The notes: generated by a model from the letters alone, not told the origin. Shown: positions 8,587-25,043, counted from the stretch's first letter. The stretch is DNA of 64,000 bases from Candidatus Latescibacterota bacterium (GCA_965219455.1 OZ244744.1:4256001-4320000); one strand, 5' to 3'. Numbers and translations are program-made.

Positions 8587-10218
8587 TTGAAACGGACGAT
8601 TATCGTTATTTGTTGCCTGGTATTGTGGAATGAAGGCGCGGCTGCCAGGGATTTCCTGGCGGAGATCGGCGCTCATGGCGCTCGGGGCCGAGCCGATTCT
8701 GCACTGGTCACGGCGCGGTTGTTCACAAAGACGTTTCCGGATAGCGCCAATGCTCATGGCGTCCTCGGCATGGTATTCGCGCAGATGGGACAGGCCCGGG
8801 GCGCTATCGGGGCCTTTGAGAAGGCGATTGAGTTAGGGCCGAATCTTGAAGCGCCGTACGACGCGCTCTTCAGGATTCACGCACAACTCAGCAGGGGTCG
8901 GGAGGCGCTGGAGGTGTTGAATAAGGGGTTGCGGCAGATTCCGAATTCCGTCCTTTTGCTGATGGACAGGGCAATGCTGTATCAGGAGGTCGGTAATCCG
9001 GGGCTTGCGGTGCAGGACCTCAGGGCTGCGATTTCGTTGGATCCTCAAAATATCGAAGCATACCAGTCTCTGGCGGGGTTGCATGTCGCGCTCAAGGACC
9101 CCGATAAAGCGCTTTCGGTTTTCGACCAGGGATTGAAGAACAACCCTGAGAGTGTTGTATTGATGATCAATCAGGGGCAGATCTACGGAGCAATGGGTAG
9201 ACCTCAGGGTGCGATTCGGCTGTACGAGCGTGCAATAATGGTGCTCGAAAAGGCATTGGAGAAGACGCCGAACGACGTTTCCCTGCTGGTAAACAAGGGG
9301 GCTATCTTCCATTCGATGCGGCGGACTGTGGAAGCCTTCACCGCCTACCGGCAGGCGGCTACCGTGGCGCCGGACGATCCTGAAGTACACAGGTCCATGG
9401 GTCAGATGGCGGCCGAGGTAGACTCGCTGGACGTTGCCCGGGAGGCGTGGGAGAAAGTGGCGCAGTTGGTGCCGGGCGATCTGGATACACGCTCCGCGCT
9501 CGCCAGGCTGTATACCGTTCAGCAGAATTGGGACCGGGCCCTGAACGAGTATCGGTTGATTATGGAAATAGCGCCCGAGGCGGAACGGGCGCGCCTTCAG
9601 TACGGCATCGCGCAGGTCTATCTGCAGAAGGGAGACATCGAACAGGCAAAGAAGGCGCTGGAAGCGACAATTCAGTTGAATCCGGACATTCTGGAGCCCT
9701 ATGGAGATCTTGCCTTGATTTATGCGGGACAGCAGGACCTCGACTCTGCTCTTGAGGTGTACAATAGGGCATTGGCGGTGGATTCCACCAATGCGGGTGT
9801 GCATTACAATATGGGCCTTGCCCTCACGTCAAGGCAGGAGTTTGATCGGGCGACGCGTGCGTTTGCCAAGGCCATAGCCTTCAGTCCGAACGAAGAAATC
9901 GGACGGGCGGCCCAGATGAAGATTGACGAGATCGAGGGGATTCAGTCAGGGAAGCTATGGGTGTACCATATCCTGGTGGAAACTGAAGCGGAGGCCCAGG
10001 AAGTTCTCGAAAAGCTGAGGGCGGGTGAAGATTTCAGAGTACTGGCCCGTGAACATTCCAATGATTCTTCAGCGGAGATTGGGGGCGATCTGGGTTTTTT
10101 TTCACCAGGCGATTTGAATCCGGCGTTTGAGGAAGCGGTGCTGAAATTGCGGGTGGGTGAGACCAGCGGGGTCGTTCAGACACCCGTGGGATATCACATT
10201 ATCAGGCGGCTGAACTGA
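8587..10218 (+). CDS. Secreted TPR-repeat protein with C-terminal parvulin-type PPIase domain
   Basis: TTG start after GGAGG, signal-peptide-like N-terminus, many TPRs; HILV...LAREHS...GGDLGFF...GYHII rotamase motifs. Confidence 0.88.
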   Translation: MKRTIIVICCLVLWNEGAAARDFLAEIGAHGARGRADSALVTARLFTKTFPDSANAHGVLGMVFAQMGQARGAIGAFEKAIELGPNLEAPYDALFRIHAQLSRGREALEVLNKGLRQIPNSVLLLMDRAMLYQEVGNPGLAVQDLRAAISLDPQNIEAYQSLAGLHVALKDPDKALSVFDQGLKNNPESVVLMINQGQIYGAMGRPQGAIRLYERAIMVLEKALEKTPNDVSLLVNKGAIFHSMRRTVEAFTAYRQAATVAPDDPEVHRSMGQMAAEVDSLDVAREAWEKVAQLVPGDLDTRSALARLYTVQQNWDRALNEYRLIMEIAPEAERARLQYGIAQVYLQKGDIEQAKKALEATIQLNPDILEPYGDLALIYAGQQDLDSALEVYNRALAVDSTNAGVHYNMGLALTSRQEFDRATRAFAKAIAFSPNEEIGRAAQMKIDEIEGIQSGKLWVYHILVETEAEAQEVLEKLRAGEDFRVLAREHSNDSSAEIGGDLGFFSPGDLNPAFEEAVLKLRVGETSGVVQTPVGYHIIRRLN

Positions 10219-11474
10219 TGGCTGAGCGTTTCGCAAAAACGGGCGACGAGGCCGGTGTATCGTCGCCCGTTTTGTGCGCCGGAAAGGGCGGAAAGCGAGT
10301 AAGGGTGCTTTTCCTGACGGGATGTACGGGGCGGGGAGGAGCCGGGAATAGTCTCTTTTATCTATTAAAACATCTCGATCCTTCGGTGTTTGAGCCCGTG
10401 GTCGTGATGCCCAACGAAGGCGTGTTGAAGAGGCGGCTCGTGGAGAACCGGATCCGATACCGTATTGAGCCCCGGCTGAAGGAACGTCTTGCGGAGATGC
10501 GATTCCAGAGTCAGAGCCGCTTCTGCAGAATGGCGTCCGTGGTTCTGAACGCGATCGACAGCGTGCGGTTTACGTTGGATCTGATTCGCATGGTCTCCCG
10601 AGAGCGTGTTGCGTTGATTTATTGCAACCAGATGATGGTGAAACTGATGGGCACCGTGGCCGGTATGGCGTGCGGAACTCCGGTCGTCTGGCACTGCCGT
10701 ACGCTTTACGGTAAGGCCTTCAGAGGCTGGTTTTTCGACTGGCTCGCGCGGTCTGAGAGCGTGACGAGAATTATCGCCGTATCCGAGGCGTGCGCGGGAA
10801 ATTTCCCGTCGGCTAAAGCGAAGGTACGTGTTGTGTACAATGGCGCGGACCTGGTCAGTTTCGACCCGGAGAGAGTTCGGGGGTGTGTGCGCCGGATGTA
10901 CCGAATTGGACCGGACGAAGTGGTGTTGGGCTTCGTCGGTCGTATCGTAAAATGGAAGGGTATCGATACGCTGCTTTCGGCGATGGAGCATGTACTGGCC
11001 CGGCGTAAGGACGTGGTTCTGGTGGTTGTTGGCGGGAGCCCGCAGCGGTCGTTGAACTTGCTGGATCGTTATCGTCACAAGGTGGCGAACGGGCGATATG
11101 CGGGCCGGGTTCTCTTTACGGGATTTCGTACCGACGTCAGACCGTATTTGAAGGATATGGATGTCACACTTGTGCCGTCCGTGGCGCCCGATCCCTGTCC
11201 GCGAAGCGTTATCGAATCTCTGGCGCTGGGCACACCGGTGGTTGGATCTGCAATCGGCGGTGTTCCGGAGTTGATCCGGGATGGTTACAACGGATTTCTG
11301 GTGAAGCCAAACGACGTCACCGGGCTGGCGGAGACCATCCTCAGGGTGATTGAGAATAGGGAATTGCGTCAACGAATGGGTTCGGCCGCCCGCGATTCCG
11401 CGGTTCAACGGCACGATGCAGTCGAAGTAGCCCGACGTGTGCAGGCCGTGATGTTTGAAGCGCTGGGGGTCTAG
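10218..11474 (+). CDS. Glycosyltransferase family 4
   Basis: GGAG N-terminal motif, VVYNG, VGRIVKWKG, DPCPRSVIESLALGTPVV, GGVPELI. Confidence 0.92.
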   Translation: MAERFAKTGDEAGVSSPVLCAGKGGKRVRVLFLTGCTGRGGAGNSLFYLLKHLDPSVFEPVVVMPNEGVLKRRLVENRIRYRIEPRLKERLAEMRFQSQSRFCRMASVVLNAIDSVRFTLDLIRMVSRERVALIYCNQMMVKLMGTVAGMACGTPVVWHCRTLYGKAFRGWFFDWLARSESVTRIIAVSEACAGNFPSAKAKVRVVYNGADLVSFDPERVRGCVRRMYRIGPDEVVLGFVGRIVKWKGIDTLLSAMEHVLARRKDVVLVVVGGSPQRSLNLLDRYRHKVANGRYAGRVLFTGFRTDVRPYLKDMDVTLVPSVAPDPCPRSVIESLALGTPVVGSAIGGVPELIRDGYNGFLVKPNDVTGLAETILRVIENRELRQRMGSAARDSAVQRHDAVEVARRVQAVMFEALGV

Positions 11475-11638
11475 TGTCCCGTCCCAGAAATATGTCACCA
11501 TTCTTCCGCCGATTCATCACGTCTCGCTGCGTTCCCGTTGCTCGCCGACCTTGCCCAGGTCGCCTCGCTCAGGCGCCTTGCGAGCCGGGCGACTCGACGG
11601 CCGAATTTACGCAATCTATTTCCGGGACAGAACACTAG
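11471..11638 (+). mobile_element. MITE-like element, copy 2 (168 bp)
   Basis: CTAG-TGTCCCGTCCCAGAAATA ... TATTTCCGGGACAGAACA-CTAG; the left CTAG contains the GT4 stop codon. Confidence 0.88.
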
Positions 11639-11758
11639 AGATGTGTCGCAGGTTCACTTTTTCATGGCACGGCTTTCGCTGTTAATGTACAGATTCTGCA
11701 ATCGAAAAAGCCCAGGTCGAATGAAGCTATCTTTAATATATACAACTATTTTTCTGCT

Positions 11759-11772
11759 TTTTGTGCACAAAA
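11759..11772. promoter_or_regulatory. Palindromic putative operator upstream of the tolC-like gene
   Basis: Perfect 14-bp palindrome TTTTGTGCACAAAA in an AT-rich upstream region. Confidence 0.4.
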
Positions 11773-11810
11773 TGACACGTCGTTTATCCGGGAGGGTGAC
11801 GGGAGAGGCG

Positions 11811-13190
11811 TTGCAATTTCTCCACACATGTAGTAAAAGTTCACACCGGGTAAGGCTTTCCGCTTCAATTGTCCTGATCTGCGTGACGGGGATCGGTATC
11901 CGTCCGTGTTATTCCGATTCCGGACCGGGTCGATACGATCTCGTCGTGTGCGTTCGGTTGGCGGTCGCGTCGAGTCCCTCCATTCATGCCGCCGAGGCGG
12001 ATCTGGAGATCGCTGAGAATCGGCTTAGACAGGTACATGCCGCGCGATTTCTTCCCCGTTTGGATCTGACCTGGATATTTGGACCGTCGCCGGAGGCTCG
12101 GGGCGACGCCATTACCGGGGTCAGCAATTGGCGGCGGATGAGTGTGTTTTCGAGAACCGAACTGTCGTTGGTTCAGCCACTTTTCACCTTTGGCAAACTC
12201 GAGGCGGCCGTAGAAGCCGCATCCGGCGGCATCGGTGCGCGCCGCGCCGGACTGACCAGATCCCGATTCGACCTGGAGCGGCAGGTAGCCAGGGCCTACT
12301 ATCTGCTGTTATTGGCAAATCAGCTCCGGGCCCTGGCGAGTGAGTCGCGGATGGAAATTGACAGGGCGCGGCGAACGATCGCCGAAAAGCTGGAAGCGGA
12401 TACAGGGGATTTTACGTATACCGATCTGTACCGGATTGACAGGTTTGTATACGACGTGGAGGAAAATGCAAATAAGGTCGTCAAGAGCCAGGCGCTCGCA
12501 CGGTCCGCGTTGCGTGTCCTCGTGGGGCTTTCTCAGTCAGACTCCCTTGTTCTCGCCGACGGGAGTCTGAAACCGCTTGACGTCCAGATCCGTCCACTCG
12601 AACACTATCTGTCGCTGGTCGAGGCTCGACCGGATCTGGGGCAACTTCGGGAGGGGTTACGGGTGCGGTCGGCACAGGTGCGCGCCATCCGAACCGATTT
12701 GTTTCCACAGGTCTTTCTCGCCGGCCAGTTTAAATACGGTTATGCGCCGAACAGGGACCGGCAGCGGAATCCCTTCCTGAAAGACGAGTTTAATGTTACA
12801 GAGTTGGGCGCCGTCCTTGGCTTTCGGCAGTCACTGTCTTTCGCGAGCACGACAGCAAGGGTGAAAGAAGCCCGTCTGGCCTATGAAAAACTCAGCTATC
12901 AGGCGCAACTGGCAGTGCGTGGCGCCCGGCTGGAGATCGAACGCGCCTATCGGTCGCTCATTGAGGCGGAAGCCAATATCAGGGCGGCACGAGTAGCCCG
13001 ACGGGCAACAAGGCTGTGGTTTATTTCGGCGAGAGATGGATTCAACGCCGGGCTGGAGGAGGCGGGGGAGATGGTCGATGCGGTCAAGGAATATGGCATT
13101 ATCCGCGCCAGGTATTATCAGGCTGTGTTGGAGTTCAATCTGGCCTGGGCGGCATTGAGGCGTGCTACGGGAACCTCGATTCTGGAGTAA
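11811..13190 (+). CDS. TolC family outer membrane protein
   Basis: Two OEP repeats (LPRLDL...LVQPLFTFGK; LFPQVFLAG...VARAYY/IERAY). Start uncertain; TTG at 11811 after GGGAGAGG chosen, since the ORF-track start lies inside the MITE. Confidence 0.85.
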   Translation: MQFLHTCSKSSHRVRLSASIVLICVTGIGIRPCYSDSGPGRYDLVVCVRLAVASSPSIHAAEADLEIAENRLRQVHAARFLPRLDLTWIFGPSPEARGDAITGVSNWRRMSVFSRTELSLVQPLFTFGKLEAAVEAASGGIGARRAGLTRSRFDLERQVARAYYLLLLANQLRALASESRMEIDRARRTIAEKLEADTGDFTYTDLYRIDRFVYDVEENANKVVKSQALARSALRVLVGLSQSDSLVLADGSLKPLDVQIRPLEHYLSLVEARPDLGQLREGLRVRSAQVRAIRTDLFPQVFLAGQFKYGYAPNRDRQRNPFLKDEFNVTELGAVLGFRQSLSFASTTARVKEARLAYEKLSYQAQLAVRGARLEIERAYRSLIEAEANIRAARVARRATRLWFISARDGFNAGLEEAGEMVDAVKEYGIIRARYYQAVLEFNLAWAALRRATGTSILE

Positions 13191-13204
13191 AAGGGGAGAG
13201 CGAC

Positions 13205-14644
13205 ATGGTAAATAAGGCAGTGATTATTGCTGCCGGTATGGGCAGCCGCTTAAACGGGCACGGATGCGGCCGGCCAAAACCGCTGGTGAAAGTGGCCGGC
13301 GTCGGGCTGCTGAAGCGGGCTATATTGACCGCGAAACGGGCAGGGATCATCGAGTTTGCCATTGTTATCGGTTTTCGAGGCAATGAAATACGCGAGGCCA
13401 TTGCAAACGATCCGCAGATCGACGTACACATAGATTGGGTTGAAAACCCGGAATGGACGCGTGGCAACGGCGTTTCCGTTCTGAAAGCCCGGGATTTTGT
13501 GGAGGGCCCATTTCTTCTGTTGATGGCAGACCACTTGTTCGAATCGCAAGTAATCACCCGTATGCGGCGCATGTTGCTGAGCACCGGCGAATCGGCGTTG
13601 TGCGTTGATACCAGGCTGCACCGGATTCAGGATCTGGACGATGCCACCAAAGTCGTCCTGGAAGGCGACCGGATTCTGGAGATCGGAAAAGCGCTGGGCC
13701 ATTACGACGCGGTGGATACCGGTATTTTTCTCTGCAGTCACGCGCTATTTGACGGACTTGAGCATTCTGTTGCACAGGGTGACGAAACACTCTCTGGAGG
13801 TGTCCGCGTCCTGGCTTCTTGCGGAAACATGCGTGCGGTGGAAATCGATGGACTGTTCTGGCAGGATGTGGATACACCGGAAGCATTGCACCAGGGAGAA
13901 AAGGCGTTGTTCGGCCAGTTGGGCAAACCGACCGATGGGATTGTATCGCGCCATTTCAACCGCAAAATCTCCTCCTGGATCTCCAGATTATTGGTAAGAA
14001 CGCCGGTGACGCCCAATCAGATTTCGATTGCCGCAATGATGGTGACCTTTCTTGCGGGCTGGGCGATGGCGGAAGGAGGCTATTTTTACGTGGCGCTGGG
14101 CGGGCTGCTGTTCCAGTTTGCGTCCATTGCGGACGGCTGCGACGGGGAGATCGCCAAGCTCAAGTTTGCGGGATCCCGCATGGGGGAATGGCTGGATACG
14201 GTGGCCGATAACGTCTCGTATCTGGCATTTTTCTCGGGTGTCATATACGGCACGTACAAATTGACCGGAGAACCGGTTCTGATCGCCCTGGGATGCGTTG
14301 CCCTTGCACTGGACGTATTGGCAGTCTTGTTCATCTGCGTTTACCTGAAGCAGAGCGGGTCGGGCAGTATCGTCAGCTTCAATATGGGGTTTTCAAGCGA
14401 GGTTCCGGAAGAGCGTCGCGGACATTTGCACCGGATATATTGTGGACTGAAGTTCGCGTGTCGTCGAGACTTCTTCGCGGCTTTGTTCTGTGTCCTGGCG
14501 GGTTTGAATTGCCTCGAGGCGATCTTCTGGATCTTTGTGCTCGGTTCCGGCCTGGTTGTGAGCGCCGTTTTCGGATTTATTGGACATATTATGCGAACCC
14601 GCACGACGGAAGCGGATAAGCTGGTTTCAGGAAAGGCGGATTGA
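13205..14644 (+). CDS. Bifunctional NTP-transferase (IPCT-like) / CDP-alcohol phosphotransferase (DIPPS-like)
   Basis: IIAAGMGSRL...PKPL, GNGVS, LMADH, DTGIF, WQDVDTPE; then DGIVSRHFNRKIS, TPNQIS, DGCDGEIAK...GEWLDTVAD plus TM helices; same architecture as IPCT/DIPPS. Confidence 0.88.
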   Translation: MVNKAVIIAAGMGSRLNGHGCGRPKPLVKVAGVGLLKRAILTAKRAGIIEFAIVIGFRGNEIREAIANDPQIDVHIDWVENPEWTRGNGVSVLKARDFVEGPFLLLMADHLFESQVITRMRRMLLSTGESALCVDTRLHRIQDLDDATKVVLEGDRILEIGKALGHYDAVDTGIFLCSHALFDGLEHSVAQGDETLSGGVRVLASCGNMRAVEIDGLFWQDVDTPEALHQGEKALFGQLGKPTDGIVSRHFNRKISSWISRLLVRTPVTPNQISIAAMMVTFLAGWAMAEGGYFYVALGGLLFQFASIADGCDGEIAKLKFAGSRMGEWLDTVADNVSYLAFFSGVIYGTYKLTGEPVLIALGCVALALDVLAVLFICVYLKQSGSGSIVSFNMGFSSEVPEERRGHLHRIYCGLKFACRRDFFAALFCVLAGLNCLEAIFWIFVLGSGLVVSAVFGFIGHIMRTRTTEADKLVSGKAD

Positions 14645-14656
14645 CGGAGGAGATGT

Positions 14657-14758
14657 ATGTACGCAAATCATGGGAAGAATAGAACGGGTATCGAGCCGGC
14701 AGGGGAGGTGTCCTTCTGCCGGATCGTTTTATTTCTGGCCTCAAAAGGAACTGGCTAA
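14657..14758 (+). CDS. Candidate small ORF (33 aa)
   Basis: GGAGG 6 nt upstream of ATG 14657; MYANHGKNRTGIEPAGEVSFCRIVLFLASKGTG; stop ends 1 nt before the mlaC-like ATG. Confidence 0.3.
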   Translation: MYANHGKNRTGIEPAGEVSFCRIVLFLASKGTG

Positions 14759-14759
14759 A

Positions 14760-15383
14760 ATGAGAATATTGTTATATATTTTTGTGTTTTATGCTTTTGT
14801 TGGGTTTAGAGGGGACGGCTCCGCCTGGGGTGCGGACCAGGCGGGAATGCTCCTTGAGATGATGAAGACACGGGACAAGTCAATAAAGGCAATTGTGAAT
14901 TCGGAATCAGAGGGAGAGACCGCTGAGGAACGCGAGAAGCTGAAGACGATTGTCGAAGAAATGTTCGATTTTCACCGCTTCAGCAGGGTTGCGCTGGGTC
15001 GTCATTGGCAACGGCGCACCGAGGCCGAGCAGTCTGAATTTGCGGACCTCTGCCGTCGCCTGATCGTCAAAAACTACGCTGATCCGAAACTCTATACGAA
15101 ATCCGAGAAAATTGAATATGCGGGTTCGAACGTCGACAGTACGGAAGGTCTCGTGAGGACCGTCGTGCACTACAAGGATGAGCAGAGCAACATTAACTAT
15201 AAACTCCATCCGGTTGACGAAAAATGGCTGGTTTACGATATGGTAATTGACGATTTGAGTGTTGCCAGAAACAATCGATCGCAATTTTACAAGGAAATTC
15301 GCAAGTCGTCGTACGAGGGTCTTGTAAAGAAACTGAGGGATAAGCTCAACGAGGACGATGCCAACGGGAAAGGGAAGGACTGA
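14760..15383 (+). CDS. MlaC/Ttg2D/HpnM-like periplasmic lipid-binding protein
   Basis: Signal peptide; FDFHRFSRVALGRHW, INYKL...WLVYDMVIDDLSV...RSQF motifs. Confidence 0.88.
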   Translation: MRILLYIFVFYAFVGFRGDGSAWGADQAGMLLEMMKTRDKSIKAIVNSESEGETAEEREKLKTIVEEMFDFHRFSRVALGRHWQRRTEAEQSEFADLCRRLIVKNYADPKLYTKSEKIEYAGSNVDSTEGLVRTVVHYKDEQSNINYKLHPVDEKWLVYDMVIDDLSVARNNRSQFYKEIRKSSYEGLVKKLRDKLNEDDANGKGKD

Positions 15384-15387
15384 TTTC

Positions 15388-17850
15388 ATGCAGGAATGGT
15401 TGCGGTTTCTGGCGGACTTTGTCTATCGACGGTACGCCAGTATAATTGTCGTTGCGGCTCTCCTTTCCATTTTTTGCAGTTTTTTTGTCTTTCGTCTGAT
15501 CCAGCGTCTTGAGACGGATATCGCTTCCCTGATTCCGGAACATTACCCCAGCGTGCAGACGCTGGAAGATATAAAAGCCCGGCTTGGCGGCGTGGGAAGT
15601 ATGGTGGTTCTGGTGGAGTGCGATGATTTTTCGCTCTCCAGGCGATTTGTGGATGATCTGGTTGTTGAACTGAAGGCGGAAAAATATTGGAAATACGTAA
15701 ATTACGTCGATTACAAGCGGGATGTCGATTTTTTCAAAGATAACGCGCTGCTGTATATGGATCTGGAGGATCTGGAGGAAATCCAGGTTCGCATCGATGA
15801 TCGCATCCGCCAGGAGAAACTGAAGTTATCACCTTTGTTTTTCAGGCTGGACGACGTCGAAGACGAAGAGGCGCTGGACTTCTCGGATATTGAAGCGAAG
15901 TACGAAGAAGACGGTGGCCGTGGCCACGAAGTCTATTATACCAATCCGGACAGCACCATCGTTGCAGTGGAGGTTATGGCATCAGGAACGGTGAGTAATA
16001 TTGGTTTCAGCAAAGAGATGTACGGAATGCTTCAGAACGCCGTGCAAGAGCTGAACCCAGGGTCCTATCATCCCGAAATGCTGATCTCGATCGGAGGATC
16101 GTACAAGAACAAAATCGACGAATATAACGTCATCCTCGACGACATCAAGTCGACGTTGATATTTGGTGTCGTTGGTGTTGTCTTGCTCCTCACTTTCTAT
16201 TTTCGGCAGCCGCTGGCTGTCTTTTTTGTTGCCATCCCGCTCATTATGGGGTTGACGTGGGCTTTCGCCATCACCTATTGGACCATTGGCAACTTGAATA
16301 CGATGACCGGATTCCTGTTTGTGATTCTGTTCGGTCTGGGCATCGATTTCGGTATTCACATGTTTGGACGGTACCTGGAAGATCGCATGGCGAACATGGA
16401 CGTGAGGCGGTCCGTGGAGACAATGTTGATCCAGACGGGGCAGGCCATCCTGACGGCCGCATTGACCACGTCGATGGCGTTCTATTCACTGACGATCACG
16501 GATTTCAAGGGATTCTCCGAATTCGGTTTCATTGTGGGTACGGGGATCGTTATGTCGCTCGTGTCGATGACGATAGTTCTGCCGGCCTTTCTGGTTCTGG
16601 CTGACGAGCGCCTGAAGCTGGTTCGAATGCGGCAGGTACTGGGGCACGACCGGGGCGGTGGGAAGGGCAGGTTTCCGATGGCGCGGTTGGTGTTCGCGGT
16701 TGCTATCGCGGTCACGGTCTACCTGGGTTATAATCTCGACCGAATACAATTCGAATACGATTTTACCAATTTGCGGTCCAATCTTGCCACATCCAAGAAA
16801 GTGAAAGACAAGATCAATACGCTTTCGAAATTCAGGGGCGAGTCCCATTCTCCGAGCGTGGTTCTGGCCGACAGCAAAGAAGAACTGGACGAAATTGTCG
16901 CGGCCTTAAACGCCAGGATTGCAGCGGATGACCCAACGCCAACGATCGACAAGATCAGGACGCTCTGGTCCTTCCTTCCCGAACAACAGGAGGAAAAGCT
17001 GGAGGTCGTCGCTGAACTGCGTGAGCTTGTGGACGGCGAAGGTGCGAAACTGCTGAAGGGCGGGCAGAAGGAGCGGGTGGACGATTTGCGTAGGCTGATG
17101 GATGTGAAGAGGCTGGACGTGGATGACCTGCCGAGGATCATACTGCGCAAATTCTCCACCGTCGACGGAAGCCGGGCGTACTTTGCGTTCATCTACCCCA
17201 GCGTGCCACTTCGGGACGGTCGAAAGGCCATCGAGTTTGCGGACGACACCCATTTGATAACGACCGACTCCGGCAAGACGATTTATTCCTCCAGTTCCAG
17301 CATTATTTTCGCCGATATGCTGAAATTGATGATCCGGGACAGCAAGTGGGCGATAAGCATCACGCTTCTCGTCGTGTTTCTTATTGTTATTATTAATTTT
17401 CGAAGTATCCGAAACGGATTGTTGGTTATGTTGCCTCTAACGTGTGGTGCAGTCTGGATGTGTGGGAGTATGTTCTTGTCCGGAATGAAATTGAACTTTT
17501 ATAACATGGTTGCCCTGCCGACCATTATCGGAATGGGGATCGATAACGGCGTTCATCTGTTCCACCGATATCAGGAGGAAGGCGCGAATTCGATACCTGT
17601 GATCCTCAGGAATACCGGCGGCGCGATGCTCGTATCGATGCTGACCACGATGGTCGGCTTTTTCGGTTTGATTACCGCCAGACATCCCGGATTGAACTCC
17701 ATCGGAAAGCTGGCCGTGATCGGCCTTCTGACCTGTTTTGTCGCGGCCATTGTGGTATTGCCCGCGGTGCTTGAGATCCTCGATCGATGGAAACGGAACC
17801 GGGGCGCGGCGAGAGTAAGGAGCGCGCGGCCGTCCGACAAGGTCAGGTAG
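15388..17850 (+). CDS. MMPL/RND family lipid transporter (HpnN-like)
   Basis: Two halves, each 1+5 TM, with GLGIDFGIH and GMGIDNGVH motifs; about 820 aa. Confidence 0.92.
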   Translation: MQEWLRFLADFVYRRYASIIVVAALLSIFCSFFVFRLIQRLETDIASLIPEHYPSVQTLEDIKARLGGVGSMVVLVECDDFSLSRRFVDDLVVELKAEKYWKYVNYVDYKRDVDFFKDNALLYMDLEDLEEIQVRIDDRIRQEKLKLSPLFFRLDDVEDEEALDFSDIEAKYEEDGGRGHEVYYTNPDSTIVAVEVMASGTVSNIGFSKEMYGMLQNAVQELNPGSYHPEMLISIGGSYKNKIDEYNVILDDIKSTLIFGVVGVVLLLTFYFRQPLAVFFVAIPLIMGLTWAFAITYWTIGNLNTMTGFLFVILFGLGIDFGIHMFGRYLEDRMANMDVRRSVETMLIQTGQAILTAALTTSMAFYSLTITDFKGFSEFGFIVGTGIVMSLVSMTIVLPAFLVLADERLKLVRMRQVLGHDRGGGKGRFPMARLVFAVAIAVTVYLGYNLDRIQFEYDFTNLRSNLATSKKVKDKINTLSKFRGESHSPSVVLADSKEELDEIVAALNARIAADDPTPTIDKIRTLWSFLPEQQEEKLEVVAELRELVDGEGAKLLKGGQKERVDDLRRLMDVKRLDVDDLPRIILRKFSTVDGSRAYFAFIYPSVPLRDGRKAIEFADDTHLITTDSGKTIYSSSSSIIFADMLKLMIRDSKWAISITLLVVFLIVIINFRSIRNGLLVMLPLTCGAVWMCGSMFLSGMKLNFYNMVALPTIIGMGIDNGVHLFHRYQEEGANSIPVILRNTGGAMLVSMLTTMVGFFGLITARHPGLNSIGKLAVIGLLTCFVAAIVVLPAVLEILDRWKRNRGAARVRSARPSDKVR

Positions 17851-17904: not shown

Positions 17905-17944
17905 AAGACAGAAGATGCGCTCCGCCGCGTGTTCTGTCTTTTTT
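17905..17944 (+). terminator. Rho-independent terminator after MMPL gene
   Basis: AAGACAGAA...TTCTGTCTT stem followed by a T run. Confidence 0.65.
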
Positions 17945-17947
17945 GTC

Positions 17948-17991
17948 CTAACGGGCTGAATCTTGACCCGTTAGACAGGCGGATGTATCAT
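17948..17991 (+). promoter_or_regulatory. sigma70 promoter with inverted-repeat operator around the -35
   Basis: TTGACC (17963-17968)-17 nt-TATCAT (17986-17991); CTAACGGG-N11-CCCGTTAG straddles the -35. Confidence 0.6.
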
Positions 17992-18038: not shown

Positions 18039-18839
18039 ATGCACTTTTGGTTTTCGTTTGTCGTCAGTTTGACTTCAGGATTATACACCTCTTTGTGGGG
18101 TGCTTTCAAGGACTCTCCCTTTGAGGGCCTGAAGCGGCGCACCTTTCCCCGTAGCGTTTACTTTCATGCCGTTATTTTTTGTGCGCTTTATTGGTTGCCT
18201 TTCTTTTATGGAAGTTTTCGTCAATTGAGCCTGTTCCAGGTTTTCTTTGCTATTATGGGCCTCGAACGGTTCCTCGCGGAGTTGTACAAGGGGTTCTTCA
18301 GATCGGAGGATCAGTCGAAATACGCCGTGCCGTCCAGAATTACGTTTTTCGGTCGGCCGGTTACCAGCGAACCGTTGCGACTCTTCTTCGGTGTCGTTCT
18401 GGTGTCGGGGGTCTTTTCCCTGCTGTTTTTTTCAGTCCGAATTGAGGATTTCCCGGGATTCGCCGCGGTCGCCTTTTCGACGGGATTGCTGGTTTCTCTC
18501 GGAGGGGCATACAAGGACGCCCCCTTTGAAGGGTTCGCTCCCCTGAAGTTTTTCCGGTCCGCAACGGTGCTGGCCATTTGTTCTCCACTGTTTTTCTTTT
18601 CAAACAATCCGCTTTCACCTGTGCCGCTCGGTTATCTGATTTTCATGAACGGTGGATTGGAGCGGTTTCTGGTCGAGTATTACAAGACCTACGTGCAGCG
18701 CACCATGTCCGGCAAGTTCAGACCGGACCTGCCGCGAATACCCCGATATATCGAGACACGCGAAAAATACCACTATATGGCGTGGATCATAATCGTTGGT
18801 CTGACAATTCTGTACGTCTATGAACTCACGGCCCTATGA
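18039..18839 (+). CDS. Hypothetical membrane protein with internal tandem duplication
   Basis: Repeats GAFKDSPFEG..FPRS / GAYKDAPFEG..FFRS and GLERFLAELYK / GLERFLVEYYK; multiple TM segments. Confidence 0.8.
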   Translation: MHFWFSFVVSLTSGLYTSLWGAFKDSPFEGLKRRTFPRSVYFHAVIFCALYWLPFFYGSFRQLSLFQVFFAIMGLERFLAELYKGFFRSEDQSKYAVPSRITFFGRPVTSEPLRLFFGVVLVSGVFSLLFFSVRIEDFPGFAAVAFSTGLLVSLGGAYKDAPFEGFAPLKFFRSATVLAICSPLFFFSNNPLSPVPLGYLIFMNGGLERFLVEYYKTYVQRTMSGKFRPDLPRIPRYIETREKYHYMAWIIIVGLTILYVYELTAL

Positions 18840-20319
18840 AGCCATTGTAATCGGGTCCGGTCTTGGAGGCGGCGCTGCGGCGTATGCGCTCAGCCGGGCG
18901 GGTTTCCGGACGCTTCTGCTCGAACGAGGCGGGTGGGTGAAGCGGGATGCGCTGGACTGGAGCCCGCGCGGGATCCTTATTGATCAACGGTACAGAAGCC
19001 GTTCGCCGATGGTGGTAGAGGGTGACGGGGCCCCTCAATCCGTTTATCCGAACGAAGCGGTCGGTGGAATGTCGGTTTTTTACGGAGGGGCGTCGCTGCG
19101 CTTGCGCGAGAAGGATTTCTGGAATTGGCCGATTGATTACGCGGCAATGGAGCCGTACTATACGCAGGCGGAGCATCTGCTGGAGGTGCATGGTCAGGCG
19201 GGCAAGGATATGAACGAGCCGCCGAGGTCCGCGGCCTATCGGTTCGGAGGCATAGAACTCACCCCTCCGGCAAAGCGGATATACGAAGCCGCGAGGGCAC
19301 TCGGGCACCGTCCCTTTAAGATACCGCTGGCGCTGAATTTCACGAACAGAGATCGGCCAACGTGCATTCGATGTACGACCTGCGATGGATTTCCATGCCG
19401 AATCGAAGCCAAAAACGATGTGGCCATGACCCTTCTGGCAAAAGCCCAGGCATTCGACCTGGATATCATGCCCGGGATGATCGTACAGCAACTGGAAACA
19501 GGGAGCGGGAGGGTCATGCGGGTCAGATGCCTGGATGGGACTTCAAAACGGGCGGTGGATTTCAGTGCAAAGATTGTGATTCTCAGTGCCGGGGCTCTGC
19601 AGAGCCCGGCTATCCTGTTGCGTTCCGGGTTGGAGCGACTCGAAAATCAGCGGCTGGTCGGTAGATTTTTGATGCGGCATTGCAATGCAGTGGTCACCGG
19701 TCTCTTTCCGTTCCGGACCAACCCGGACCGTGTATTTCACAAGCAGTTGTGTTTTACGGATTTCTACGAAGACCTGAGGGATCGATTGGGCACGTCAGTG
19801 GGAACGATTCAGGATATATACACTCCCGCTCCGGAGGTGCTGAAGCACTACGCACCCTTCGGATACGGGAATATGTCCGCGTTTGTGGCCAGCTGCGTTC
19901 AAAATTTGCTCTGCATCGCGGAAGACGATCCCCAATTTGAAAATCGGGTGCGTCTGACAACACGTCGGGACGATTACGGAATCGCGGTCACCGGAGTCGT
20001 CCATCGATATTCGGATGAAGACCGCGTCCGCAGAAAATATCTGACAGAAAGGGCCAAACGCATTTTGAAGCAGGCGGGTGGCATCTACCGCCGCGTTTAC
20101 AAACTGGATACGTTCTCCCACGCGGTCGGGTCGCTGCGTTTCGGTAACCACGCCCGGGACAGCGTTCTGGACGAATTCTGCCGGTTTCGCGGCATAGACA
20201 ATCTGTTCGTCCTCGACGGCAGTTTTATGCCCACGTCGGGAGGGGTGAATCCGAGCCTTACGATTGCAGCCAACGCGTTGCGGGTCGCGGATATCATCCG
20301 CACGGAATACGGAAAATGA
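18820..20319 (+). CDS. GMC family oxidoreductase
   Basis: GSGLGG FAD motif, VGGMSVFYGG, CxxCxxCDGFPC, SHAVGSLRFG, NLFVLDGSFMPTSGGVNPSLTI. Confidence 0.93.
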   Translation: MNSRPYEAIVIGSGLGGGAAAYALSRAGFRTLLLERGGWVKRDALDWSPRGILIDQRYRSRSPMVVEGDGAPQSVYPNEAVGGMSVFYGGASLRLREKDFWNWPIDYAAMEPYYTQAEHLLEVHGQAGKDMNEPPRSAAYRFGGIELTPPAKRIYEAARALGHRPFKIPLALNFTNRDRPTCIRCTTCDGFPCRIEAKNDVAMTLLAKAQAFDLDIMPGMIVQQLETGSGRVMRVRCLDGTSKRAVDFSAKIVILSAGALQSPAILLRSGLERLENQRLVGRFLMRHCNAVVTGLFPFRTNPDRVFHKQLCFTDFYEDLRDRLGTSVGTIQDIYTPAPEVLKHYAPFGYGNMSAFVASCVQNLLCIAEDDPQFENRVRLTTRRDDYGIAVTGVVHRYSDEDRVRRKYLTERAKRILKQAGGIYRRVYKLDTFSHAVGSLRFGNHARDSVLDEFCRFRGIDNLFVLDGSFMPTSGGVNPSLTIAANALRVADIIRTEYGK

Positions 20320-21251
20320 AAAAAATCTGTCTGGTCGGCTGCGGGAACATCGCTCGGCTGCACGCGAGTAATCTTTCGGGCGCCGCCGAGCTTTTTTTCT
20401 GCAGTCGATCCGAAGAAAGCGCCCGGCGTTTCAATATTAAATTTCGCGGCAGCGGCATCTTCAGCCGTCTGGATGATGCGCTGGCATCACCCGACGTGGA
20501 CGCGGTGGTGATCGCATCCCCGCCGGCGTTCCATAAGGATCAGGTGATCCGTGCAATGTCGGCGAGGAAGGCCGTGATGGTCGAAAAGCCGATGTGCGTT
20601 TCTCCGGAGGAGGTGGATGAGATCGGTGCAGCGCTGGCCAGGCATCCGGAAGCGCTGTTGATGGTGGCCGAAAACTACTGTTATAAACCATTGCTCAAGA
20701 AAATCAAGGCATTGACCGGGAGGTGCCGGATCGGAAACATCAGGTCGATACGGGTGAAGAAGATGTTCACACAGTCGACATTCGGTTGGAAATGCCAGTA
20801 CGGTGCATTGCTCGAAGGCGGCATCCACTTCGTCGCGTTGATTTCCGCGCTGCTCGAGTGTTCGCCGGCAAGCGTCATTGGGCGGTTTCCCGGACGCCGC
20901 GAGGGACAACCGGAGCGTTCATCGGTTACCGAGCTGACCTATCCCGACGACGTGACTGCCGAGTTGAGGTATTCGTGGAACACGAGCAGCCGCACAATGG
21001 GTACCTTTCAGCATTCCCGCATCTATGGCACGCACGGCCAGATCATATTCGAAAGCAATGGCCTCTATGTACTCCAGACCGGTGATTGTGGTGCCCGGCT
21101 GTACTTTCCCGGAATATCGGATCTGATGGGGTATCGGGAGATGACCCGCGATTTCTTGTGTTGTCTGGACGATCGAAGCCGGAAGCCGTATTCGGACTTT
21201 CTGAGAGCCAAACAGGATCTGAGAATCGTTTTTGATGCCTATCGCTGGTAA
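20316..21251 (+). CDS. Gfo/Idh/MocA family oxidoreductase
   Basis: VGCGNIA, VEKP, VAENY, GALLEGGIH; ATGA overlap with the GMC gene. Confidence 0.9.
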   Translation: MKKICLVGCGNIARLHASNLSGAAELFFCSRSEESARRFNIKFRGSGIFSRLDDALASPDVDAVVIASPPAFHKDQVIRAMSARKAVMVEKPMCVSPEEVDEIGAALARHPEALLMVAENYCYKPLLKKIKALTGRCRIGNIRSIRVKKMFTQSTFGWKCQYGALLEGGIHFVALISALLECSPASVIGRFPGRREGQPERSSVTELTYPDDVTAELRYSWNTSSRTMGTFQHSRIYGTHGQIIFESNGLYVLQTGDCGARLYFPGISDLMGYREMTRDFLCCLDDRSRKPYSDFLRAKQDLRIVFDAYRW

Positions 21252-21558: not shown

Positions 21559-22608
21559 TTGCCGGTGAACGATCGCCTGAAGACTTATCTCCAGTCCTTT
21601 GTACCCCTTATCGACGCAGAACTGTTCAGGTTTCTGCCTCAGGCCGAGCCACTCGGCTATTTGTACGAACCGATGCGGGATTACCCGATTCGGGGCGGAA
21701 AGCGGTTTCGGTCGGTACTGGTGCTGCTGGCATGCGAGGGGTTGGGAGGTACTGTGGAGAAGGCGTTGCGGACGGCGGCGGCGTTTGAGATGTTCCAGTC
21801 TTTTGCACTGGTTCACGACGATATTGAAGACGGTTCGGAAATGCGCAGGGGAAAACCCTGTCTGCACCACCTCCACGGTGTGCCGTTGAGCGTCAATGCG
21901 GGTGACGCGCTACATTCGAAGGTGTTCGAGATTCTCGCTTCCAACAGGGAGATTCTCGGCGACGCCGTGGCGCTTGATCTGATTCAGGAAATGCTTTACG
22001 GAGCTCAGCGTACATTTGAAGGACAGGCTTACGATATTGGCTGGATCGAGTCGGGCGATGTTCCCGAAGTTGATGTTTTCCTGGAAATGCTACGCCTGAA
22101 AACGGGTTGGTACAGCGGCAGGGGGCCGTGTACCGCCGGCGCGATCGTCGCCGGCGCATCCCCGGATTGTCAACGGGCCGTGGGCGCGTTCGGCGAGCGA
22201 ATGGCGGTGGCGTTTCAAATCAAGGACGATCTGCTGAATCTGACGGTGCGGGCCGAGGATGCACTCCAGGCCCCGACGACGACCTCCGGGGGCTACGGCA
22301 AGGAACGCGGCGGAGACATTGCGGAGGGTAAGCGGACCCTGATGGTGATCGATCTCTTCCACAGATGTTCGCCGGATGAACAGGCGTGGGTGCGGGACAT
22401 TCTGAATCGAGATCGTTCCGAAACAAGGACGGATGAGGTCGAGCGGACGATCTCACTGATGGAACACTACGGTTCGATCGAACGGGCCGAAAACGCGTGC
22501 CGGGAATGGGCGGCAGCCGCGGAAGCGCATCTGAACGAGATTCCTCCGTCCGAGGCCCGGGAGACGATGCGCGAGATGTGCGGTTTTCTGGTCGACAGGG
22601 TGTTTTGA
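21559..22608 (+). CDS. Polyprenyl diphosphate synthase (archaeal/type I GGPP synthase-like)
   Basis: GGKRFR, FALVHDDIEDGSEMRRG, NAGD, GQAYD, KT, FQIKDDLLN, GKERGGDIAEGKRTL; start may be GTG 21565. Confidence 0.92.
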   Translation: MPVNDRLKTYLQSFVPLIDAELFRFLPQAEPLGYLYEPMRDYPIRGGKRFRSVLVLLACEGLGGTVEKALRTAAAFEMFQSFALVHDDIEDGSEMRRGKPCLHHLHGVPLSVNAGDALHSKVFEILASNREILGDAVALDLIQEMLYGAQRTFEGQAYDIGWIESGDVPEVDVFLEMLRLKTGWYSGRGPCTAGAIVAGASPDCQRAVGAFGERMAVAFQIKDDLLNLTVRAEDALQAPTTTSGGYGKERGGDIAEGKRTLMVIDLFHRCSPDEQAWVRDILNRDRSETRTDEVERTISLMEHYGSIERAENACREWAAAAEAHLNEIPPSEARETMREMCGFLVDRVF

Positions 22609-23729: not shown

Positions 23730-23758
23730 AAAATACATAAGCGATGGTTGCGTGTCAA
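23730..23758 (-). promoter_or_regulatory. Promoter of tRNA-Thr
   Basis: Minus strand TTGACA-17 nt-TATTTT. Confidence 0.6.
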
Positions 23759-23768
23759 GGGTAATTCT

Positions 23769-25043
23769 ATGGAACCCACCGAAACGGGTACAACGGGATC
23801 GACGGAACAGAATATACCAGGAAACCTGGTAATGGGCGCCGCGAAGGTTGACGTAACGCCGCCAATAGGTATGTCAATGGCCGGATATTCAGGTCGCAAG
23901 AGCTCGGCCATAGGAACGCATTTGCCGCTGTGGGCAAGGGCTTTTGTGTGCGAACAGGGTTCGGTGCGGGTTGCGCTTGTCGTGGTGGACGTGGTCGGAT
24001 TCAGCGGGAAGACCACGGAGCGGATACGGACGTCGATTCAGGAGCGGACGGGAATTGCGATCGACCGCATCCTCGTTGCAACGACGCACACCCACTCCGG
24101 ACCGGTAACCACCCGGTTCCGTGACAACGCACCCGATCCCTCGTATATGGCGGACCTGGAGGAACGGATTGTCGAGGCGGTGGTCAGGGCTTCCGATGAT
24201 CTGCAGCCGGTAACGATCGGGTTCGCACAGATGCAGGAACCCGAATTTCACCACAACCGGCGCAAGGACGATCGACCCATAGATTCTACGCTCGGGCTGG
24301 TGCGCTTTTTAGGGGCGGACGGACGGGTCGTGGGCGCCTGGGTGAACTACGGCTGCCATCCGACGATCCTGACGGGGACGAATCTCCATTGGTCCCCGGA
24401 CTTTCCCGGAGTGGTCTGCGACAGACTGGAAGACGCCTGGGGCGGTTCGGCCGCGTTTTTCAACGGTTGCCTGGGTGATGTAGGGCCGTACCGGCCGGAA
24501 CAGAACTTCGCTGAAGTGAAAAAGATCGGCAGCGGACTGGCGGGTTCGGTGCTGAATATGGCCAGGGACATCACGCAAAAGGGCAATCGTGGACTCGACG
24601 CGCAACGGCTTTATTGCACGTGCCCGCTGGATGCCATACCGACCGTGACCAACTTAAACGAACAGACGGCGCGCTCCAGGCCTGATTCGTACCAGGCGGG
24701 CTGGGCACGAGATCAACTGGCGATGCGAGCGGCGGGTGAGGCGGTTCCCACCTCGGTGCGACTGGAGGTGCAAGGGCTTCGCATCGGGGATGTGTTCCTG
24801 GCGTGTTTTCCAGGACAGCTTTTCGGTTCGTGGGGGCTTGAGTTAAGGCGTCGATGGCCGGACGACCGACTGTTCATCGTCAATCAGGCGAACGCGCATG
24901 CCGGCTATTTCCCTTCGAAAGAGGCATGGGACGGAGGAGGTTACGAGGTCCGGTCGGCGTTCATGTTTAATTCCGATTTGCCAGCGCCGATGACGTCGGA
25001 GGCCGGGCGGCGATTGATCGATACCGCGCTTACCTTGGCGTAG
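23769..25043 (+). CDS. Neutral/alkaline ceramidase-like metallo-amidohydrolase
   Basis: VDVTPP, MAGY, THTHSGP, NYGCHP, DFPG, GYFP...GGYEV; start uncertain. Confidence 0.82.
   Translation: MEPTETGTTGSTEQNIPGNLVMGAAKVDVTPPIGMSMAGYSGRKSSAIGTHLPLWARAFVCEQGSVRVALVVVDVVGFSGKTTERIRTSIQERTGIAIDRILVATTHTHSGPVTTRFRDNAPDPSYMADLEERIVEAVVRASDDLQPVTIGFAQMQEPEFHHNRRKDDRPIDSTLGLVRFLGADGRVVGAWVNYGCHPTILTGTNLHWSPDFPGVVCDRLEDAWGGSAAFFNGCLGDVGPYRPEQNFAEVKKIGSGLAGSVLNMARDITQKGNRGLDAQRLYCTCPLDAIPTVTNLNEQTARSRPDSYQAGWARDQLAMRAAGEAVPTSVRLEVQGLRIGDVFLACFPGQLFGSWGLELRRRWPDDRLFIVNQANAHAGYFPSKEAWDGGGYEVRSAFMFNSDLPAPMTSEAGRRLIDTALTLA

Follow-up and report, generated by a model that had tools for sequence, protein, structure and literature searches.

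Two routes that pair an RND transporter with a soluble protein of the MlaC family have recently been proposed for lipid traffic. In Pseudomonadota, HpnN, HpnM, and the MlaA-like HpnS, together with HpnL, were described as a hopanoid trafficking set (Lawrence et al. 2025 preprint, PMC12324291), and in C. jejuni the mlaA-mlaC-RND operon Cj1371-1373 was suggested to transport phospholipids outward, with lyso-phospholipid as the cargo (10.64898/2026.08.28.747810). On the biosynthetic side, a lipid route based on CDP-inositol is documented in Rhodothermus marinus, where it involves IPCT and BEPIS, a CDP-inositol-dependent dialkylether glycerophosphoinositol synthase (Jorge et al. 2015, as cited in PMC4587543 and PMC9246714), and is hypothesized for B. 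vulgatus and Prevotella in the same two sources. Here, we analyzed a locus that resembles both types of system. It occupies positions 11811 to 17850 of a 64,000-nt stretch, referred to as the window, of the complete 5.84-Mb single-contig genome of a Candidatus Latescibacterota bacterium (GCA_965219455.1 OZ244744.1:4256001-4320000). Its four genes encode a TolC-family outer-membrane factor (OEP), a bifunctional enzyme with NTP_transf_3 and CDP-OH_P_transf domains (BIF), an MlaC-like protein, and an MMPL/RND transporter. We propose, with a probability of roughly 55%, that this conserved locus serves the synthesis of an envelope lipid of the phospho-inositol type and its outward transport via the RND transporter, the MlaC carrier, and a dedicated TolC-family protein. 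With moderate confidence, we regard the locus as a new variation on the lipid routes recently proposed for RND-MlaC pairs.

All four genes were found on the plus strand by Pfam and NCBIfam searches, in agreement with the initial annotation of this DNA, which had called four co-oriented genes with the same domains. Its parallels to HpnN/HpnM (PMC12324291) and to the CDP-inositol lipids of R. marinus (PMC4587543, PMC9246714) also hold, to the extent that these sources describe the systems. As in the Hpn set, an HpnN-like RND gene adjoins a gene for an MlaC-family protein, and an HpnL-like gene is present in two related loci (L009 and L012). However, the outer-membrane component of the Hpn set is an MlaA-like lipoprotein, whereas a TolC-family OEP and no MlaA is found here. 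Hopanoid genes accompany the Hpn set; here, there is a CDP-alcohol enzyme and no squalene-hopene cyclase, and the relatives of HpnN, HpnM, and HpnL all score under the curated cut-offs. The C. jejuni operon similarly encodes MlaC together with an MmpL-like RND protein but, as described, includes MlaA and neither a TolC-type nor a head-group synthesis gene. In AcrAB-TolC and MexAB-OprM, an RND pump and a TolC-fold factor are encoded together as well, whereas the pump studied here is of the HpnN/MmpL rather than the HAE1 type and an MlaC-type protein takes the position of the adaptor.

As a bacterial CDP-alcohol phosphotransferase that converts CDP-inositol to a membrane lipid, R. marinus BEPIS, compared by its published description, provides a precedent for BIF. 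In contrast to the present locus, the IPCT and BEPIS genes of R. marinus share an operon-like arrangement with the gene for inositol-3-phosphate synthase (MIPS), and no mention is made of transport genes there (PMC4587543). A gene resembling lysyl-phosphatidylglycerol synthase was described near both inositol-lipid clusters (PMC9246714), which parallels the HpnL-like gene of our loci. In the literature searched, no paper joined MlaC, HpnN, and TolC.

The linkage of these genes was evaluated in a synteny survey, in which an alignment of BIF homologues was used to retrieve 80 loci from one-genome-per-species contigs, the proteins of the window were searched against these loci, and open reading frames (ORFs) were clustered. 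The order OEP-BIF-MlaC-MMPL-TMunk-GMC was kept in 15 Latescibacterota loci (L003-L017), mostly with GFO in addition, and BIF was 59 to 90% identical. TMunk denotes a membrane protein without a known family; GMC and GFO are oxidoreductases. The TMunk gene was syntenic in L003-L017 and in L061, as was the GMC gene, which was missing only from L006, whose contig ends; the GFO gene was syntenic in L003-L005, L007-L010, L015, L017, and L061. The conserved unit extends past the four genes, through TMunk-GMC-GFO (18039-21251). The initial annotation was right about the gene set and missed this downstream part as well as a conserved hairpin inside the cluster. Across the phylum sample of 151 genomes, the two families in the order to which the window belongs had full-length BIF orthologues of at least 55% identity in every genome (18 of 18 and 30 of 30), with weaker or split matches in the remainder.

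Outside this arrangement, the same families recur in different order. L061, from Gemmatimonadaceae, contains all seven genes as GMC-GFO-TMunk-OEP-MlaC-MMPL-BIF, preceded by a lipid-kinase-like gene and followed by a MOP flippase gene. Loci L019-L022 and L025 encode BIF, a methyltransferase, a MOP flippase, a second CDP-alcohol transferase, OEP, DUF3047, MlaC, an alkaline-phosphatase-family protein, and a radical SAM protein. In L026 (KSB1) and L062, BIF is followed by an MlaC~DUF3047 fusion gene, OEP, and MlaC, and L027 (Methylomirabilota) has OEP-MlaC-MMPL-MlaC, with BIF and a radical SAM gene about 5 kb further. Linkage exceeds chance, since the same families are joined in several phyla and in no fewer than five different arrangements (window type, L061, L019 type, L026/L062, and L027). 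Overall, OEP, MlaC, or MMPL was present in 25 of the 80 loci. The proposal in the initial annotation had been made to depend on conserved synteny, and this is what was found, with the arrangement kept in the 15 Latescibacterota loci and rearranged in Gemmatimonadota, KSB1, Methylomirabilota, and other bacteria. Fusions of MlaC with DUF3047 lie directly beside the TolC-like gene in three loci (L009 8425-9822, L026 11729-12985, and L062 10287-11582), and a free-standing DUF3047 gene separates OEP from MlaC in L019-type loci; DUF3047 may be an additional part of the transport module. The HpnL-like LPG_synthase_TM gene occurs beside BIF relatives in L009, L012, L028, and L052. Its product reached 151 bits against TIGR03476 (HpnL; cut-off of 196) in L009 and L012, where the gene precedes that for OEP. 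A MOP flippase gene was found beside the enzyme in 7 of 24 loci examined from the clade that contains BIF (clade A, see below).

An independent survey, in which an MlaC alignment was scanned against metagenome contigs, returned another 80 loci. The OEP gene was present in 11 of the 17 closest ones (L089-L105), often with DUF3047, BIF, MOP flippase, or MMPL, and total counts were 13 for OEP, 10 for MMPL, and 14 for BIF. Frequent in the closest loci and rare overall, the OEP link is therefore a trait of this MlaC subfamily and not of all MlaC relatives. In nine weaker loci from soil metagenomes (L114, L123, L126, L130, L138, L143, L147, L156, and L162), a CDP-alcohol/NTP-transferase-like gene directly follows a distant MlaC gene. 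Its product is 27 to 32% identical to parts of BIF, and these loci represent a second, separate linkage between MlaC and a CDP-alcohol enzyme.

Both domains of BIF were aligned with the solved IPCT/DIPPS of A. fulgidus (4MND; E value of 4.3e-51). The nucleotidyltransferase signature G-x-G-x-R-L is present as AAGMGSRL at residues 8 to 15 (Pfam NTP_transf_3 and NTP_transferase), and the CDP-alcohol motif D-x2-D-G-x2-A-R-x8-G-x3-D-x3-D retains all acidic residues (D310-G-C-D313-G314-E-I-A317-K318 ... G327 ... D331 ... D335). The arginine of this motif is lysine in BIF (DGCDGEIAK) and Lys, Val, Asn, Thr, or Arg in its relatives. BIF thus has the two-domain architecture, the signature, and the CDP-alcohol motif of the A. 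fulgidus proteins (4MND, 2XME) and of the profile NF041135. It differs from them in its separate clade, in the lack of an adjacent MIPS gene, in a strongly diverged membrane half, and in the change of the motif R to K/V/N/T.

The match to 4MND, the identity of the best NCBIfam hit of BIF (the IPCT/DIPPS equivalog NF041135), and the presence of a MIPS gene in the genome would fit a plain IPCT/DIPPS that produces the soluble osmolyte di-myo-inositol phosphate and whose transport neighbors are unrelated in function. We consider this explanation very improbable. BIF scored 254.4 bits against NF041135, far under the cut-off of 580, and was aligned to profile positions 2 to 339 of 419 only, leaving its C-terminal part unaligned. 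This profile was modeled on Thermococcales, and six representatives of clade B, which was resolved by the enzyme tree described below, also fell under its cut-off (284 to 319 bits) while aligning end to end. Five clade A proteins reached 230 to 254 bits, and the alignments of four of them ended near profile position 335 to 353 of 419. Its place in clade A, apart from all 20 MIPS-adjacent loci, and the low conservation of the membrane half (see below) also count against this explanation. Furthermore, linkage to genes of the lipid-transport and flippase type recurs in several phyla.

A quick IQ-TREE phylogeny of 81 BIF sequences (the 80 loci and the window) was split into clade A (37 rows), which includes BIF, and clade B (44 rows) with an SH-like approximate likelihood ratio test (SH-aLRT) value of 99. 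All 26 transporter-linked rows (25 loci and the window) belong to clade A, which has no MIPS-adjacent member. All 20 MIPS-adjacent loci belong to clade B, which includes the archaeal rows and has no transporter-linked member. Columns conserved to at least 85% in clade B were compared between the two clades. In the cytidylyltransferase half, 52 of 58 such columns retain the residue in clade A, whereas only 31 of 59 do so in the membrane acceptor half, where the changes affect several conserved arginines, the one of the DG..AR motif among them, and include R318K, R336N, D339Y, Y387G, R418M, R424F, and R454G. This pattern suggests that clade A has kept the donor side of the reaction, with CTP and a polyol phosphate as substrates (inositol phosphate being the simplest candidate), and has altered the acceptor side. 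Clade A represents an uncharacterized clade of IPCT/CDP-alcohol phosphotransferases which probably serves the synthesis of lipids with inositol-type head groups in uncultured phyla, through a Kennedy-like CDP-inositol pathway.

OEP had no PDB match by sequence and reached 72.8 bits against TIGR01844, under the cut-off of 225. Its AlphaFold2 (AF2) model (predicted local distance difference test [pLDDT] of 83) contains four beta-strands (residues 70-79, 99-112, 287-298, and 316-326) and helices of 67 to 69 residues. Two OEP repeats and a protomer fold of four strands and long helical hairpins identify it as a member of the TolC family. Foldseek matched the model to TolC, OprM, CusC, and others with TMq values of 0.70 to 0.77 over about 420 to 440 columns, and to TolC itself with an E value of 1.2e-19 and a TMq of 0.77. 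Because the model superposes on TolC, OprM, and CusC, OEP is predicted to be a full-length TolC-fold protomer. Conservation of the barrel loops was discarded as an indicator, the difference in mean top-residue frequency (0.68 to 0.73, versus 0.50 to 0.59 in helices) being too small.

The genome encodes five OEP proteins, four of them within 6 kb of an HlyD_D23 adaptor gene. The OEP of the cluster is the only one without an adjacent adaptor; no HlyD_D23 gene was located within 600 kb of it in a search that covered PF16576 only, with other HlyD subfamilies outside its coverage. In tripartite efflux, the adaptor is encoded with the pump or the channel, which is the case for all four of the other OEP genes and not here. 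The sole gene with an MCE/MlaD domain lies about 1.3 Mb from the cluster. The initial annotation had remarked on a missing adaptor and missing MlaFEDB components, and the cluster indeed contains no such genes.

The MlaC-like protein starts with a hydrophobic N terminus (MRILLYIFVFYAFVGF), is matched by solved MlaC-family chains in the PDB at an E value of about 1e-12, and scored 59.4 bits against HpnM (TIGR03481), under the cut-off of 160.1. It is the single PF05494 match in the genome. MlaA gave no matches in this complete genome, nor in five further genomes that carry the OEP-MlaC pair and whose completeness is not known. Among 14 control genomes, MlaA and MlaC were present in E. coli and Caulobacter only; a missing MlaA is therefore usual outside Proteobacteria, and MlaC without MlaA is unusual. 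The nearest solved relatives of the MMPL protein are HpnN structures (5KHN and 6WU0; E value of 2.4e-24), and its two transmembrane halves bear the motifs GIDFGIH and GIDNGVH. NCBIfam scores were 319.7 bits for HpnN (TIGR03480; cut-off of 751.85), 202.9 bits for NF052374 (cut-off of 1100), and 218 bits for the sterol transporter BstA, and the protein is thus HpnN-like and not HpnN by the curated cut-off. Hopanoids were rejected as cargo: the best squalene-hopene cyclase match in the complete genome (PF13243) reached 22.2 bits, under the cut-off of 26.1, and the HpnN-, HpnM-, and HpnL-like proteins therefore carry no hopanoids here.

A complex between residues 1 to 800 of MMPL and 25 to 207 of MlaC was predicted with a score of 0.34, compared to 0.00 for the best of three controls. 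The runs agreed in at least 96% of contacts, and partner pLDDT was at least 75. Of 80 solved complexes, 58 reach the mark applied, as do 2 of 110 mismatched pairs; with a score of 0.60 or under, only 7 of those 80 and both passing mismatches reach it. This prediction, one of the checks suggested by the initial annotation, lends weak support to a contact between the two proteins. The interpretation put forward there stands in part: domains, gene absences, synteny, literature parallels, and the separate enzyme clade agree with it, and the complex prediction supports it weakly.

In the route that we propose, BIF would use CTP to activate a polyol phosphate; myo-inositol phosphate, which yields CDP-inositol, is the most likely one. 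The membrane domain of BIF would then transfer the phospho-alcohol not to soluble inositol phosphate but to an alcohol that resides in the membrane, so that a phospho-inositol-type lipid would be formed at the inner membrane. Driven by the proton gradient, the HpnN-like RND pump would lift this lipid from the inner membrane, the MlaC-like protein would ferry it through the periplasm, and the dedicated TolC-family protein would serve as the outer-membrane terminus. TMunk, GMC, and GFO probably serve in a redox modification of the lipid or its head group. Since MlaA is missing from this lineage, we propose that the TolC-family protein takes the place that MlaA or HpnS has in Proteobacteria. That the product is a lipid, which lipid it is, that transport runs outward, and every hand-off between proteins are inferred.

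Transport could alternatively run backwards, retrieving mislocalized or surplus lipids from the outer to the inner membrane as the E. coli Mla system does, or the cassette could export a secreted amphiphile, such as a surfactant, pigment, or glycolipid, through the TolC-family protein to the exterior instead of contributing to the outer membrane. TolC tunnels normally expel their substrates to the medium, and the nearby GT4, GMC, and GFO genes could tailor a secreted glycolipid. Members of the MlaC family act in retrograde transport in E. coli, according to the source on C. jejuni (10.64898/2026.08.28.747810). Nevertheless, RND pumps are exporters powered by protons, and outward transport is favored, as far as presented, in the two recent proposals of RND-MlaC sets (PMC12324291; 10.64898/2026.08.28.747810). 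We therefore regard retrieval or secretion as distinctly unlikely.

Several observations weigh against the proposed lipid export. In clade A, 11 of 37 rows have no transporter gene in the fetched flanks, and MIPS adjoins none of its 36 loci, compared to 20 of 44 in clade B. In the genome analyzed here, MIPS stands alone, 287 kb from the cluster, with no lipid genes in its neighborhood. The initial annotation had pointed to co-occurrence with inositol-3-phosphate synthase, and the gene was found; as a test for inositol, it was dropped, because MIPS is near-universal in the phylum sample (143 of 151 genomes, with or without BIF) and its presence does not discriminate. The lipid-forming genes of R. 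marinus, as described, also stand with MIPS, so clade B may hold lipid synthases of the BEPIS type too, and the contrast between the clades is not simply one of lipid versus solute. The acceptor of BIF, and even its alcohol, are inferred. In the survey started from MlaC, just 9 of 30 loci of at least 6 kb contained an OEP gene. In five genomes, the MMPL orthologue lies apart from the OEP-MlaC pair, and its neighbors there include no consistent partner. The cluster itself is divided into two pairs of genes by a conserved terminator-like hairpin. Finally, the OEP model is a TolC tunnel of full length, a form made for the docking of adaptors, and five HlyD genes at other places in the genome lack an OEP partner gene, so that they may borrow the cluster OEP.

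In another explanation, the RND transporter and MlaC would form an HpnN/HpnM-type path alone and OEP would serve adaptor-dependent pumps encoded elsewhere, being present in the cluster through co-regulation or history. The five HlyD_D23 genes without an adjacent OEP must borrow one, the predicted fold of OEP is canonical, the hairpin parts OEP-BIF from MlaC-MMPL, and no HpnN/MmpL-type RND is known to use TolC. However, OEP and MlaC remain neighbors in several phyla through no fewer than five rearrangements of gene order, even where the MMPL gene is absent, and the MlaC~DUF3047 fusion genes of L009, L026, and L062 adjoin the OEP gene. In a tree of 19 OEP rows, 15 MlaC-linked OEPs from several phyla lie on one side of a branch (SH-aLRT of 98), apart from the four adaptor-linked paralogues, although this outgroup consists of four rows only, all of them long branches. 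On balance, such borrowing seems unlikely to us.

If export of an inositol-type lipid is correct, the RND, MlaC, and TolC-fold module would provide a concrete lipid route and a lipid-traffic role for the TolC family. Lipid delivery to the outer membrane in non-Proteobacteria diderms is largely unknown, and most such phyla lack MlaA. Tentatively, and with odds clearly below even, the locus might represent a trans-envelope machine of a third kind, in which a proton-driven HpnN-type RND, a soluble MlaC carrier (joined to DUF3047 in some lineages), and a TolC-fold channel dedicated to the route export a CDP-inositol-derived phospholipid to the cell surface or the outer membrane. It is equally tentative that the soluble carrier would stand in for the membrane-fusion adaptor and TolC for MlaA. 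The distribution of such a machine could conceivably span Latescibacterota, Gemmatimonadota, KSB1, Methylomirabilota, and further diderm phyla that have received little study, a suggestion that we make with the same reserve.

Features of the cluster and its surroundings are listed in Table 1.

Table 1. Coordinates of genes and putative regulatory elements in and around the OEP-BIF-MlaC-MMPL cluster (window positions)
Feature	Position	Strand	Evidence or remark
TPR and parvulin-type PPIase protein, N-terminal hydrophobic segment	8497..10218	+	Pfam TPR families, Rotamase
GT4 glycosyltransferase	10218..11474	+	Pfam Glycos_transf_1, Glyco_transf_4
OEP, TolC family, signal peptide, MlaC-linked subfamily	11811..13190	+	Pfam OEP twice, 123.7 bits
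BIF, bifunctional cytidylyltransferase/CDP-alcohol phosphotransferase, IPCT/DIPPS-like, clade A	13205..14644	+	Pfam NTP_transf_3 and CDP-OH_P_transf
Terminator-like hairpin and T-run between BIF and MlaC genes	14696..14722	+	Conserved in genus
MlaC-like periplasmic lipid-carrier protein, signal peptide	14760..15383	+	Pfam MlaC (PF05494) 117.7 bits, cut-off 26
HpnN-like MMPL/RND (HAE3-type) inner-membrane transporter	15358..17850	+	Pfam MMPL twice
Weak terminator-like hairpin 3' of MMPL gene	17914..17933	+	7 pairs, 3 G-C, T-run
Promoter-like site after weak hairpin	17963-17991	+	TTGACC-17-TATCAT
TMunk, polytopic helical membrane protein	18039..18839	+	No Pfam/NCBIfam match
GMC-family FAD oxidoreductase	18820..20319	+	Pfam GMC_oxred_N/C; start overlaps TMunk stop
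GFO/IDH/MocA NAD(P) oxidoreductase	20316..21251	+	Pfam GFO_IDH_MocA; start overlaps GMC stop
Polyprenyl diphosphate synthase, IdsA/GGPPS-like	21559..22608	+	Pfam polyprenyl_synt; NF040698 210 bits, cut-off 468

The ORF of OEP spans 11538 to 13190, with TTG at 11811 as the likely start codon after a purine-rich GGGAGAGG stretch. For BIF (ORF 13016-14644) and MlaC (ORF 14580-15383), ATG codons at 13205 and 14760 are the likely starts, the latter behind AAGGA, and MMPL likely starts at ATG 15358 or 15388. The hairpin between BIF and MlaC, with a 10-pair stem of which 7 pairs are G-C, followed by TCGTTTTATTT, is stronger than the one after MMPL. Its stem ends and T-run are invariant across seven genus-level sequences, and in L008 CCGAC/GTCGG replaces CCGGC/GCCGG, a compensatory change in the stem. 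Because of this internal hairpin, transcription as OEP-BIF and MlaC-MMPL, with read-through, may occur, and the element may be an attenuator that sets the ratio between the two gene pairs. The terminator that the initial annotation had placed after MMPL does exist as a hairpin with a T-run, albeit a weak one.

TMunk had no Pfam, NCBIfam, or PDB match by sequence, and all of its 412 homologues are labeled hypothetical. It contains an internal repeat (GAxKDxPxEG ... LERF..E.YK). Its AF2 model is all-helical (pLDDT of 82, predicted TM-score of 0.84); Foldseek against the PDB returned nothing at an E value of 1e-3 or less, the best Z score of a wide VIA-align search, 6.2, went to helical bundles of designed or GPCR-like type and carries no meaning, and only "hypothetical protein" clusters were retrieved from the ESM Atlas. 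The best NCBIfam match of GFO was IolG, at 77 bits (cut-off of 355). Judging from the tight coupling of the three genes, our guess is that TMunk, GMC, and GFO might form a membrane-anchored oxidoreductase set acting on the head group or the lipid.

Linkage of the remaining neighbors to the cluster varies. The TPR/PPIase gene is conserved throughout the order, lying upstream of OEP in L003-L017 except L017 (41 to 85% identity), and its product may be an envelope or periplasmic chaperone tied to the cluster. The GT4 gene is linked within the genus only (L003-L008); its slot is taken by the HpnL-like LPG_synthase_TM in L009 and L012. The polyprenyl diphosphate synthase gene is downstream in L003-L005, L007-L009, and L089, and its link to the cluster is uncertain. 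Further downstream in the window (23748-25043), a 431-aa protein matches the N-terminal half only of the neutral/alkaline ceramidase family (PF04734, 62.8 bits). Conservation of this protein downstream of the cluster does not reach past the genus (L003, L004, L007, and L008), and it was therefore dropped as a sign of sphingolipid cargo.

Whether bacteria of the Fibrobacteres-Chlorobi-Bacteroidetes (FCB) group may produce lipids of the ether or archaeal type has been a subject of discussion. Outside the window, a gene of the PcrB/GGGPS family directly follows alaS (G000:C1:5051785-5052531; L083 11786-12532; PF01884, 128 bits). Situated near a CDP-alcohol transferase gene at 5.05 Mb, it was considered as an ether-lipid locus and rejected: it lies among recA, alaS, and metK, with no lipid genes beside it, and given these housekeeping surroundings, no link to the cluster was drawn.

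Two further features were observed next to clade A enzymes. A radical SAM gene of about 340 to 370 aa adjoins them in 10 of 24 loci examined; loci with this gene are L018, L023, L027, L028, L052, L019-L022, L025, and L026, and the best NCBIfam match of the product is the PTO1314 family, at 77 to 90 bits and far under the cut-off. In the Latescibacterota locus L024, a 937-aa protein (9992-12802) combines a cytidylyltransferase domain with two CDP-alcohol transferase stretches. It is apparently a fusion of BIF with a second transferase, and its gene is followed by methyltransferase and MOP flippase genes.

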